Shown here one piece after another: positions 12,001 to 15,000 of a DNA stretch of 21,054 bases. A program made the position numbers. The stretch lies in the IMG/VR virus record IMGVR_UViG_2521172734_000008, positions 1 to 21,054 of that record, one strand, 5' to 3'. The first letter of the stretch is position 1, and the number at the start of each line of letters is the position of its first letter. This DNA comes from a virus (Duplodnaviria; Heunggongvirae; Uroviricota; Caudoviricetes).

Positions 12001-15000
12001 GCCGAGTTCATCACCTGGTGTACAAGCGAAGGCATTGGAATCAATGCCGAAGGTAGAATGCAGTTCGCATCCTTTAAGGCTTACCAACAACTTCTCAGCG
12101 AACGCTAATGTGATCGGGGCAATCGAAATGGTTGTCCCATCGTATTTAATAGTTATTTTTTCGCTCATATCACCACCATCACTTCCCATCTTCCGTGTGC
12201 GCTAGGCTTGGGTGTGTATATGGAATGCTCGGATCCAAATGACAAAGAATGGCAACATCCTCCGGAACACCTCGCGTTTTCCACTTTCCAACACCTTGAC
12301 TGCCACGAGGCCTTCCTTTCTTTGGGAACCTGCGACCAATAGCGGCATTGGTTTTAAATTGAATTTTTAATATTTCATAAAGGGTCATTCTTTAGTCTCA
12401 CACCAGATACTTTGTTATCCAACGATGTTAACCACAGGAATCCAAAGTATCAAGAAATTCTGTTACTTTAGTATCAACAACCATGAGAGGAGAAGAAAAA
12501 TGAAGTCTTTAGGTGAACGTCTCATCAACGCACGGCAAAAAGCTGGGTTAACACAAGATGCGTTGGCTAAAAAAGCTGGGATCACCAGAGTTGCAATCAG
12601 TAAAGCCGAGCAAGGCCTTACAAAAAGTTTCAACGGTGACACCCTTTTTAAAGTTGCAGCTGCACTGCGGTGTTCACCGCAGTGGCTTCAGAACGGAGAT
12701 GAAAAAGATAAGCATTGGGAAAATAATGTTAAGAGCTGCCCACAGAGAGACACAGCACACTCTTACCCTGTAATTAACTGGGTTCAGGCAGGATTATTCG
12801 CAACTTCTGGTGATGACTACAACATGTATGATCAGGATAATTGGAGGCATTCTGTAAAATACGCTGGTGAGAGGGGGTTCTGGCTGGAAGTGCACGGAGA
12901 CTCAATGACTTCGCCCGTAGGAATAACATTTCCTGAAGGAATGTCGATCCTTGTCAACCCAGATAAAGAAGTTTTTTCAGGGTGTTACGTCATCGCCAGA
13001 AAAAAATCCACCAATGAAGCAACATTCAAAAAATATATTTCTGACATGGGAAAGGCGTTTCTAAAGCCCCTTAATCCACAATATCCAATCATAGAAATGG
13101 ACAATGATTGCGAAATAGTAGGTGTTGTGGTTGATGCCAGGTGGGATATTTTCTGACCAGACACAAAACACAAAACACAAAAAGAAACCAAAGTATCAAA
13201 AATCACTTGCCACACCTTGATACCTTAGTTACCATAAAACAAAGTTCGTAACTGAGGTATCATCTCATGATCAATAAAGCTACAACTCTTGACTGTCTCG
13301 AAGAACTGAAAAACCTCGGCAGCCTCATTACACTAATAGCAAAAGCAACACCTGATGCTACGCTCTCTAGCGATATAGAGTCATGCGCAGGGCTGGCATG
13401 GGATATGACAAATAGCATATCCAGAAAGCTATCGTCAGCAATGCTTTTACAGAATAAAAATTCTGCAATCAACAACCGTCTTCGCACCCAACGCGAAGCC
13501 TGCGGCTTAACAACCGCCGAACTCGCCAGGCTGCTCGATCTCGATGAAGAAATTATCATCCAGTGGGAGAGCGGAGAGTATGAACCAACTATCAGTATGC
13601 TTATCCCACTGGCAAATATTCTTGGCTGCGATCCGATGTGGCTGTTAACTGGTAAACCAACAGGTGGGGATACTTGCGCATGAAAAACTGTGATGCTTAC
13701 CATATTTGTCTCATTGGTGAATTGCTTGATTTCATACAAAAAAGCACTGCGCGCAATAATAAAAATATAACATATGGTGATCTGGTAATAATTTCAGAGG
13801 ATATAAAGAGCATCGCTCTTAAATTCAAGAGCGACGCGAGTATTGATGACGCTATTTACGCTTATCTTGCGAAAATAATTGACGGATCCAAAATCCAGCC
13901 TCTGGATGAACCTCGTCAGTGAAAAACTCCTTTGATGAAGATGAGAACTGCTTCATAAACTTTACTTTATCTTCAGGTGAAACTACCTGACGAATTAATG
14001 CGGAGATAGCAACTTTGTGCCAAATTAATTCTTTTTTGAGTTCTGAAATCTCTTTTTCGAGTTGCTCTGCGTTAATCATTTATCCTCCATTGAGAGCTGA
14101 ATTGAAAATGGGGACCAACACGCGGCTACGTGTGGTCGTGCGCCGGACACGGATAAGCATCCGGTAACTGATTATCAATCATTGCGGAAACAGTCTCAAT
14201 ATGAAAACACTTCTGAGACTCGCTATATAGCAGGACATATAAGTCAGCTGAGGAAGCCATGAAAAAGTTCGAAAACATAACTGTTCTCCATGTTGATGAC
14301 TTTGATTATACAAACCCGGAACTTCTCCCGGAGGTTGTAAAGGCAATAGATGTTGCCGATATAGTGATTAGAGAAAAGAGAATTGTCAAAAACAGGCTCG
14401 CATGCACTTCAGGAGCAATGACAGAAACAACCTCACAGCAAGATAATTACGAAGGCATTTGTCTGGAGCCTGATTCATTTGCGGTAAATGTTTATCATTT
14501 ATTGCATGCAACACAGGTATTACATATGTCCAGTAATCACGAAACGAAAACACTCGGCAGCGAAATTCTGAGTTTTGCATGTGAGTATACAAAAGCTGCT
14601 GCCGAAAAAGAATTAGCGCAATAACAACAAATATGCCCTGAACGTTTATTGCGGTTTTATCGCCGGGGATTGTTACAACCTTAATCCACAGGAGGCTTTA
14701 TTGTGACTTTTATAAAGAATATGGCATCACACAAGACCGCCTGCCTTATTGCACAATACGGTGAAAATTACATGCATATTGCCTGCTTATTTCTGCGTAA
14801 AGCATACGGGAGATAATAATGCATCAGAAAACAGCAGAACACGAACAAACCAGAGTATTGCTGACCATCAAAAACGGGAAAGTAATATTCATTCGCCATG
14901 TTCATGACGATGAACTTGTAGGAACTCTTTCAACATTCCTGTTTATTGCAGAAAGGGCAGGATATGACGTTATTGCACCAGCAGATGAAGATGAAGATGA

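Follow-up and report, generated by a model that had tools for sequence, protein, structure and literature searches.

What is the role of a small gene that reads against the early operon in which it lies, and what is carried by the palindrome-containing DNA in front of it? The question is raised by a 21,054-nucleotide (nt) stretch of Caudoviricetes DNA (IMG/VR record IMGVR_UViG_2521172734_000008, positions 1 to 21,054; the whole stretch is called the window below), whose sequence identifies it as a phiP27-like lambdoid prophage of E. coli. Here, the coding sequence (CDS) of a 75-aa orphan protein (WP_000606214.1; 13852-14079, minus strand, ATG start) is set against a plus-strand operon, and the initial annotation had interpreted the adjoining region 14080-14258 as a divergent control region with palindromes that could be operators. 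The 75-aa gene alone appears to be an ordinary orphan moron. What stands out is a conserved structured 5′ leader of ~90 nt (14077-14166, minus strand), which extends from the predicted transcription start to the AUG. At a probability of roughly 0.6, we read the segment 13805-14199 (minus strand) as an autonomous moron cassette that is placed head-on in a PL-type operon and uses the leader as a shared expression platform for translational control. The cassette would consist of a sigma-70 promoter, the ~90-nt structured leader, the CDS of the 75-aa helical protein, and an intrinsic terminator; lambdoid prophages of the Enterobacteriaceae would place the same leader before many unrelated small genes, all in the position that is occupied by sieB in the Rac prophage (the sieB slot).

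A covariance model of the leader (R1), built from 31 distinct leaders, has one match in the window, at 14077-14166 on the minus strand (89.5 bits, E=3e-25). When the leader is searched alone, it is present in 973 of the 5426 complete E. coli genomes (~18%) at 1628 places, with up to four copies per genome that are almost always chromosomal. Prophages of O157:H7 and ST131 carry it, and it is also found in Edwardsiella and Pluralibacter. The 75-aa gene itself is carried by only 54 of the 5426 genomes (blastn with 13800-14260), and blastn with the same segment showed nothing annotated at the leader copies. In alignments of the leader loci, the DNA homology ends exactly at the start codon. A cargo survey of 165 fetched loci (IMG/VR contigs and species-representative genomes) revealed at least 17 unrelated open reading frames (ORFs) of 30-112 aa behind the same Shine-Dalgarno sequence (SD) and leader, among them two members of the YmfI family and a group of proline-rich peptides of 30-32 aa. 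Apart from the YmfI-family matches and one weak GhoS-like Pfam match, the other cargo families gave no informative match. These alignments establish that the leader, and not the protein, is the conserved part and that the cargo is interchangeable at the ATG.

In each of the four annotated contexts, the cargo unit runs against the genes around it. In the O157:H7 and ST131 prophages the leader unit lies between a DUF1391 gene and dicF/dicB, and in phage phiSTEC1589 it is reversed within the rightward replication operon. Furthermore, decayed copies that have lost their cargo are present in the Stx2 phage P13374 and upstream of dicF in the K-12 prophage Qin, in Shigella, and in E. albertii. A crude census of ORF strands within 3 kb of every leader copy carries no strand information because the divergent rightward operon falls inside that range. 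The leader is an undescribed, widespread 5′ untranslated region without an Rfam family. No Rfam model overlaps 14077-14166 at E<=1 when the whole window is scanned, and at E<=10 (scan of 491 nt) the sole overlap is a eukaryotic long non-coding RNA at 13.4 bits (gathering threshold 38). In the searchable literature, neither a mention of the leader nor a paper that prints its invariant 15-mer was found, and the papers on dicBF do not describe the element.

Several side observations concern the cargoes and remnants. Proline-rich peptides of 30-32 aa (for example, MLINQFGDLPKPTPDGQVPYRPAPSPKPPEKP) stand behind the leader in locus L131 (2660-2752) and in L140, L132, L145, and L156, which come from Edwardsiella, Pluralibacter, and others. 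In Edwardsiella ictaluri, the next ORF on the cargo strand encodes 156 aa with hydrophobic stretches (two transmembrane segments by eye) and adjoins xis/int; neither this ORF nor the peptides have a Pfam match. In phiSTEC1589-Stx1c (L128, 2213-2503), a reversed 96-aa ORF starts from the leader ATG and overlaps a plus-strand ‘hypothetical protein’ (1834-2334) by 122 bp, and in P13374 the annotated ‘ORF16’ overlaps a remnant of the same reversed 96-aa ORF (L127, ~2380-2500). Judged from these reading frames, the wrong strand may have been annotated in both records. The K-12 Qin copy between ydfC and dicF (L126, 2585-2640) keeps helix H1, the invariant 15-mer, helix H2, and a TAAACT box resembling a -10 element. 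This predicts an unannotated antisense start near NC_000913.3 1,649,131-1,649,133 that reads into ydfC.

The leader contains conserved, covarying helices, as established by comparison of its variants. On the minus strand it begins with a 5′ hairpin (helix H2, 14143-14164; CCGGAUGC/GUGUCCGG, loop UUAUCC), which is predicted in nearly all of 40 variants. H2 comprises five pairs, followed by U.G and C-G pairs; the five are uninformative for covariation because they are invariant. The linker between H2 and H1 (14138-14142) is part of the invariant stretch CCGUGUCCGGCGCACGA (14151-14136, minus strand; about 17 nt), which is identical in 31/31 distinct leaders (alignment A2) from Escherichia to Edwardsiella, while H1 diverges completely. 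In helix H1 (14113-14137; GACCACACG/CGUGUUGGUC), six of the eight pairs change on both sides. Other lineages have replaced H1 wholesale by segments that are still helical (CUCCAC/GUGGAG, CUCCAU/AUGGAG, and CCCUAC/GUAGGG), and the helix is predicted independently in nearly all of the 40 variants.

The 3′ part of the leader consists of helix H0, followed by GAUAAA and the AUG. In H0 (14085-14113), the anti-SD CCCCAUU (14113-14107) is paired with AAUGGAG (14091-14085), which contains the SD; four pairs covary, and the window copy has one C.A mismatch. Variants of H0 include CUCCAUU/AAUGGAG, CUCCUUA/UAAGGAG, and CUCCACU/AGUGGAG, so that the anti-SD changes in step with the SD (AUGGAG, AAGGAG, GUGGAG). 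Moreover, the 3′ half of the SD together with its spacer (GGAUAA, 14080-14085) is the proposed pseudoknot partner of the H2 loop UUAUCC (14156-14151). The two sites change together: UUAUCC/GGAUAA, UUACCC/GGGUAA, and (U/A)CACCC/GAGUGA. In a plain, unfitted MAFFT alignment, pair 14-89 is UA in 19 leaders, CG in 10, and unpaired in two, and pair 12-91 is UA in 29 and CG in two. The covariance-model alignment repeats this pattern, though the model had no pseudoknot. Together, H0 and the pseudoknot would pair the whole ribosome-binding site (RBS) AUGGAGGAUAA.

The covariation score of the leader was 0.169 for 43 distinct sequences, which none of 500 shuffles reached (0.051) and which compares with at most 0.078 for slid controls. 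Ten pairs have changed on both sides in the R1 alignment of these 43 sequences, an alignment that is fitted to the model and therefore favours the modelled structure, while its misregistration of part of H1 works against it. Covarying helices and a pseudoknot from a loop to the RBS point to translational control. Two other folding schemes were considered and rejected. H1 as the intrinsic terminator of a minus-strand small RNA (sRNA) or attenuator fails because the U-tract of the E. coli type is absent in Edwardsiella and Pluralibacter, and a four-segment toggle in which the 3′ arm of H1 pairs with the anti-SD works in some lineages only, to which the window type does not belong.

Upstream of the leader, a sigma-70 promoter of the 75-aa gene is predicted at 14171-14199 (minus strand). 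It consists of the -35 hexamer TTGAGA (14199-14194), a 17-nt spacer, and the -10 hexamer GATAAT (14176-14171), and it agrees with 10/12 consensus positions in a consensus scan. Transcription would start at ~14164-14166. The right flanks of the leader copies fall into about nine unrelated sequence classes, in each of which CCGGAU is preceded, at a distance of 5-7 nt, by the end of a hexamer that resembles a -10 box (second position A, sixth position T): GATAAT, TAAACT, TAAAAT, TAAGCT, TAAATT, TATTAT, TAACAT, TATGGT, and TATTTT. A rough estimate of the probability that such hexamers occur at this fixed spacing by chance is P ~3e-5. Because of this spacing, the leader is taken to span exactly the +1 position to the AUG. 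At the other end of the gene, 15 nt past its stop codon, the terminator scan reports an intrinsic-terminator-like hairpin followed by the U-rich tail UCUUUAUAUC (13810-13837, minus strand). At pair 13812-13835, the minus strand reads G.U and the plus strand A.C; the phiP27 haplotype has A-T there (A-U in RNA). As the G.U pair forms only on the minus strand and is A-U in phiP27, the hairpin is assigned to the minus-strand RNA.

The block 13654-14171 behaves as an inserted or replaced module, which contains the last 10 codons of a 138-aa helix-turn-helix (HTH) gene, an 80-aa ORF, the 75-aa gene, and the leader. Otherwise near-identical prophages (L005) are without exactly 13654-14171 and encode a 167-aa version of the HTH protein. 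The right junction of the module falls within the -10 hexamer. Since the four parts of this block are absent together in L005, they are considered one inserted module. From its predicted promoter and terminator, the 75-aa gene is a self-contained moron inside the early-left operon. Juhala et al. reportedly described lambdoid morons in 2000 as autonomous units of promoter, gene, and terminator. The likeness includes the predicted promoter, the single small ORF, and the terminator hairpin, as well as the presence or absence of the module as a block among near-identical prophages; the orientation and position of the cassette would also allow expression from a repressed prophage. Classical morons are not known to share a conserved structured 5′ untranslated region across unrelated cargoes. 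In the present cassette, by contrast, conservation lies in the leader, and ORFs are exchanged behind it exactly at the ATG.

The initial annotation had also pointed to a strong SD on this gene and to its isolated orientation, and both observations held: GGAGG stands 4 nt before the ATG, and in the RefSeq annotation of an identical prophage the 75-aa ORF is the sole minus-strand CDS between the cI-like repressor and int. The ORF is called by the NCBI Prokaryotic Genome Annotation Pipeline (PGAP). Codon positions were compared after ten relatives had been aligned to the window, one of them the phiP27 haplotype at 94% identity. In the non-overlapping part of the 75-aa frame (13923-14079), 13 of the 17 substitutions fall on third codon positions (p=3.4e-4), and over the whole ORF the count is 17/25. 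Protein identity between the haplotypes is 91% for the 75-aa frame and 86% for the 80-aa frame (DNA ~94%). The third-position bias therefore identifies the 75-aa ORF, on comparative grounds, as a real gene under purifying selection. It is intact in all haplotypes other than that of the phiP27 record, including L013, which is otherwise of the phiP27 haplotype.

The protein is confined to close relatives: a search of 5.8 billion proteins gave six clusters, all with at least 71% identity, and HMMER, run exhaustively on 1.84 billion representatives, added no relatives more distant than that. The Pfam scan (E<=0.1) returned only four sub-threshold, unrelated matches, NCBIfam and PADLOC gave no match, and among the PHROGs only phrog_20080, a family without assigned function, was matched. 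The AlphaFold2 model contains helices at residues 4-32, 35-52, and 59-73 (pLDDT 71.6, pTM 0.41), which makes a coiled-coil-like character plausible. A Foldseek search of this model against BFVD gave nothing below E=1. The protein is hydrophilic, without a hydrophobic or membrane segment. Judging by position, the best guess is that it has an exclusion or host-modulating function and would be expressed in the lysogen.

The convergent overlap proposed for this gene exists as sequence, as the 75-aa ORF shares 71 bp (13852-13922) with the plus-strand 80-aa ORF (13680-13922), whose start overlaps the stop codon of the HTH gene (ATGA) and which holds the terminator of the 75-aa gene. Its partner, in turn, has no coding signature. 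The substitutions in the 80-aa ORF at codon positions 1/2/3 are 4/5/7 (third position 7/16, p=0.26), PGAP does not call it, and it is seen only inside the 13654-14171 module, where it is open in both haplotypes; it matches phrog_23054. On this comparison, the 80-aa ORF is probably not a gene. A convergent overlap of two genes is doubtful because the 80-aa ORF shows no coding signature, no PGAP call, and lower protein conservation. Antisense interference with the early-left transcript is plausible, and it would concern the whole 75-aa gene and not just the 71-bp overlap.

The comparison with sieB was borne out for the position and not for the protein. The 75-aa gene occupies the same counter-oriented slot as sieB in Rac, where the order is racR-ydaG-ydaF(DUF1391)-sieB-kilS-kilR with sieB reversed (kilS is an sRNA). 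Relatives of the dicF type read ydfA(DUF1391), a further gene x, the reversed cargo, the leader, dicF, and dicB, which is the same slot. The 3′ end of Rac sieB also converges on its neighbouring gene, and the DNA in front of sieB shares homology with that just upstream of the leader in the dicF-type and L132 loci. The promoter flank of the window belongs to a different sequence class; the upstream homology holds for the relatives and is not clear for the window. As a protein, the 75-aa product is no homologue of SieB: no relationship was found by Pfam, NCBIfam, PADLOC, or exhaustive HMMER, and SieB of Rac has 162 aa compared with a 75-aa hydrophilic protein without a transmembrane segment. SieB, the superinfection-exclusion protein of Rac, lambda, and P22, is membrane-associated and about 160-190 aa long, and sieB is expressed from its own promoter in the lysogen. 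As a side observation, a homologous segment of the form GCGC(C/T)TTC..GTT.TGC..TTTCACCAC..GGTGGT is found upstream of two counter-oriented K-12 genes, Rac sieB (L167, 3535-3671) and e14 ymfI (L166, 5395-5497). It contains an inverted repeat in the presumed promoter spacer and also precedes the leader in L132 and, in a diverged form, in the dicF-type prophages.

We infer the promoter activity, the transcription start, the translational repression, and the biological role of the cassette from sequence. In a lysogen, cI would shut PL off and leave the cassette promoter free. The cassette mRNA would be stabilised by its 5′ hairpin and kept translationally closed or throttled by the fold that sequesters the RBS, until a common signal (such as temperature, processing at the 5′ end, or a factor of host or phage) opens the leader. 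As the cargoes are unrelated, whatever acts on the leader in trans would have to be common to them: a ligand, a host or phage factor, temperature, or processing. After induction, head-on transcription from PL and the fully complementary early transcript would silence the cassette. The minus strand is favoured as the functional strand of the leader for three reasons: the leader ends at an ATG with the SD at a fixed distance, a change in the SD is matched by changes in both of its partners (the anti-SD and the H2 loop), and the -10-like hexamer stands at a fixed distance in about nine unrelated flank classes.

A number of observations weigh against this reading. The covariation events are few (perhaps two or three independent ones each in H0 and the pseudoknot) and partly reflect one clade split, the L128 and L146a copies break a pseudoknot pair (C.A), and the SD-paired probability in RNAfold (0.82) is not above that of shuffled controls (0.80). 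The asymmetry of G.U and A.C in H1 is balanced at 14 vs 13, and some single variants suit the plus strand better, for example in the Pluralibacter H1 and at an A/G position under an alternative inner pairing of H2. The -35 boxes are weak (4/6) in most flank classes, and there is no leader before Rac sieB or e14 ymfI. In the phiP27 record, a 1-nt insertion frameshifts the 75-aa ORF, and the protein is therefore dispensable for the phage. Finally, in K-12 Qin and Shigella, H1, the linker, and H2 are retained in copies that have neither an SD nor a minus-strand cargo, so that an action on the plus strand or the mere persistence of the element is possible.

Of the rival explanations, the operator model proposes that 14080-14258 is a divergent region whose palindromes bind a repressor, with the 75-aa gene transcribed leftwards and a 121-aa gene rightwards. 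All three inverted repeats that it invokes are present, and an XRE-type HTH protein is encoded just upstream. Two of the three are RNA helices of the conserved leader instead of operators: CACG..CGTG, listed as ‘CACGcggctaCGTG’ in the initial annotation, lies within 14113-14137 and corresponds to H1, and CCGGA..TCCGG (14143-14164) corresponds to H2. They keep pairing despite sequence change or lie in the transcribed leader RNA. The third, GTCTCA-N15-TGAGAC (14193-14219, by sequence inspection), overlaps the -35 hexamer of the minus-strand promoter, and a palindrome GGATATATCC is located in the promoter spacer of dicF-type relatives, as the model would have it. The GTCTCA repeat lies outside the conserved leader, is also found in prophages without the module, and is broken in phiP27 (14216 A>G). 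Moreover, no plus-strand promoter is predicted in 14080-14258 before the 121-aa gene, which continues the PL operon with no plus-strand terminator between, and the region contains only one chance-level match with two mismatches to the cI-type operator repeat AAAGTATCAA. Operators of the cI-like repressor were accordingly rejected for this region because they lie at 12404-12477 and 13190-13262, and the model is considered very improbable. Even less credit can be given to the proposal that the 75-aa ORF is a spurious antisense frame in a non-coding spacer, which is scarcely credible. The orphan status of the protein without distant homologues, the frameshift in the phiP27 record, and the moderate confidence of the structure model would suit it, yet it has to contend with the third-codon-position bias (p=3e-4), a strong SD at the fixed position common to all other cargo ORFs, and a frame that is intact in every haplotype other than that of phiP27, including L013.

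The strand of action is at the centre of another alternative, in which the element acts on the plus strand in the early transcript as a processing or stabilising site or as an antiterminator that works in cis, as put does, ahead of genes of the dicF/dicB type, and the minus-strand genes only make use of it as a recombination joint. Consistent with it, the plus strand of the element is the operon sense in all four annotated contexts, including the rightward phiSTEC1589 operon, the K-12/Shigella copies keep H1, the 15-mer, and H2 just upstream of dicF without any minus-strand gene, and some wobble pairs form only on the plus strand. The element also resembles the description of put RNA (two stem-loops, ~70 nt; PMC9378689), and it shares with the put sites of HK022 the location in a lambdoid early operon, stem-loops within ~70-90 nt, and non-coding conservation. 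A comparison with put was tried and set aside, as the 15-mer is unmatched (up to 3 mismatches) in the 8-kb HK022 early region, a comparison of primary sequence only in which the put sites themselves were not located. Put sites lie close to PL/PR, whereas the element is ~900 nt downstream of the PL-like promoter (13207-13235) with a reversed gene between. In addition, the Rfam scan found no dicF in the window, and the known RNase III site of the dicBF transcript is further downstream (PMC10448788). The plus-strand alternative, to which we give a rather small chance, would leave unexplained why the SD and ATG are fixed, why the SD covaries with both the anti-SD and the H2 loop, and why the -10 hexamer keeps its distance, three features that point to the minus strand. 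An arrangement like a type I toxin-antitoxin or abortive-infection module, with toxic cargoes, an mRNA that is inert until processed, and the early-operon RNA as antisense antidote, is judged improbable. It would account for an RBS locked by a 5′-proximal loop and anti-SD, for an early transcript that is fully complementary to the cassette, and for small cargoes (30-112 aa) in the sieB slot, of which one has the weak GhoS-like match and one, in Edwardsiella, is followed on the cargo strand by the 156-aa ORF with hydrophobic stretches. On the other side, the 75-aa protein is hydrophilic and has no membrane segment, it is unlikely that 17 unrelated families are all toxins, PADLOC is negative, and neither a dedicated antisense sRNA gene nor evidence of processing specific to the minus strand was found. 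No plus-strand promoter or terminator frames a small RNA at the cassette, and only the long PL transcript would be antisense to it.

Beyond the cassette with a translationally controlled leader, which we prefer, a more far-reaching proposal is that the leader represents a new class of sensing RNA (riboswitch-like or responsive to a trans-acting factor), serving as a regulated socket for swappable cargo across the Enterobacteriaceae. The pseudoknot would keep the RBS closed until it is opened by a metabolite, a nucleotide messenger, or a protein that an infecting phage supplies, or else by temperature or 5′ processing, and the lysogen would thereby express the small gene, for exclusion or host modulation, that happens to be plugged in. 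This proposal is tentative and unlikely as it stands. The fold does resemble leaders in which a hairpin loop pairs with the SD region, such as the preQ1-II and SAM-II riboswitches and the alpha-operon and T4 gene 32 operators. Like these, it has invariant junction nucleotides beside covarying helices and is located directly before the start codon; unlike them, it has no match among the Rfam families. With products that are unrelated to one another, autoregulation is unlikely.

Two other known systems can be compared with the cassette. In the tisB, zorO, dinQ, and hok mRNAs, the RBS is locked by 5′-proximal pairing. The cassette is similar in the closure of its RBS by such pairing, in the small size of the ORFs, and in the complementary RNA from the opposite strand. 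It differs in cargoes that are mostly hydrophilic and mutually unrelated, in the apparent lack of a dedicated antitoxin sRNA, and in the lack of Rfam similarity. The OOP RNA of lambda is a 77-nt non-coding RNA. Like the predicted cassette transcript, it is short, runs counter to its surroundings, and overlaps with its 3′ end the terminal part of an early ORF that converges on it. The transcript in the window, by contrast, is predicted to be protein-coding, and the ORF that it overlaps is probably not a gene.

If the preferred reading is correct, the leader would mark a hypervariable sieB slot in which at least 17 unrelated small proteins are exchanged at the start codon. Model R1 may thus serve as a handle for cargo genes expressed in lysogens that gene callers miss or place on the wrong strand, such as the 30-32-aa proline-rich peptides and the reading frames behind the plus-strand annotations in phiSTEC1589 and P13374. 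The leader also gives a concrete RNA structure model for the translational control of prophage accessory genes. In K-12, the leader remnant and the predicted antisense promoter between ydfC and dicF may matter for the regulation of dicBF.

The surrounding prophage provides the context for these assignments. Over positions 13200-14700, the window shows 100% identity with E. coli O111:H21 strain 15A and 95% with the Stx2e phage phiP27. According to the RefSeq annotation of the identical prophage, the plus strand carries a cI-like repressor of the LexA/S24 type (12500-13156), small genes, xis, and int, and the int end adjoins yecN/cmoA; the minus strand carries the rightward operon with a cro-like gene, Rha/Ant, replication genes, and QuuD. 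The cI-type operator repeat AAAGTATCAA/TTGATAC forms two clusters, one between cro and cI (12404-12477) and one between cI and the next gene (13190-13262). Sites of the AAAGTATCAA type with at most one mismatch are clustered at 12444-12453 and 13190-13226, and the others are singles at 7952-7961 and 12624-12633. Because the second operator cluster brackets the promoter-like site 13207-13235, the PL equivalent is placed before the 138-aa XRE-type HTH gene (13267-13683), and 14080-14258 thus lies ~900 nt inside a PL-type operon. The PL-like promoter and its operators (13177-13266) are directly 5′ of this HTH gene, which is the first early-left gene here; in lambda, N is the first early-left gene. 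The 138-aa protein combines an unassigned N-terminal domain with an XRE HTH.

Some minor observations were made elsewhere in the window. An STnc100 sRNA (139 bits; 2077-2267, minus strand) adjoins three tRNA genes (2348-2590) downstream of the Q-like antiterminator region. A gene for a porin of the OmpC family (3416-4498, plus strand) lies within the prophage, flanked by the Q-like antiterminator and by the tRNA/lysis region, with an orientation opposite to that of its neighbours. A mirror image of the 75-aa gene is provided by a 97-aa gene (11815-12108, plus strand; phrog_4753, no assigned function), which lies between the cro-like gene and the Rha genes and is opposed to the minus-strand early-right operon; no leader copy precedes it, in line with the single copy found in the window by the covariance model. 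To the right of the cassette, a 70-aa protein (14819-15031, plus strand; phrog_340) ends in a purely acidic tail (ADEDEDEDEDEDEDEE), for which a GAT/GAA repeat codes, and weakly resembles anti-repressors at their C-termini. Finally, the segment 10634-10835 (minus strand) has Rfam matches to the C4 antisense RNA (82 bits) and isrK (62 bits) and a weak a1/b1 target site, all located within and upstream of the Rha/Ant genes. By its sequence, this segment looks like the c4-ant antirepressor control module of the P1/P7 immI type, here in a lambdoid prophage.

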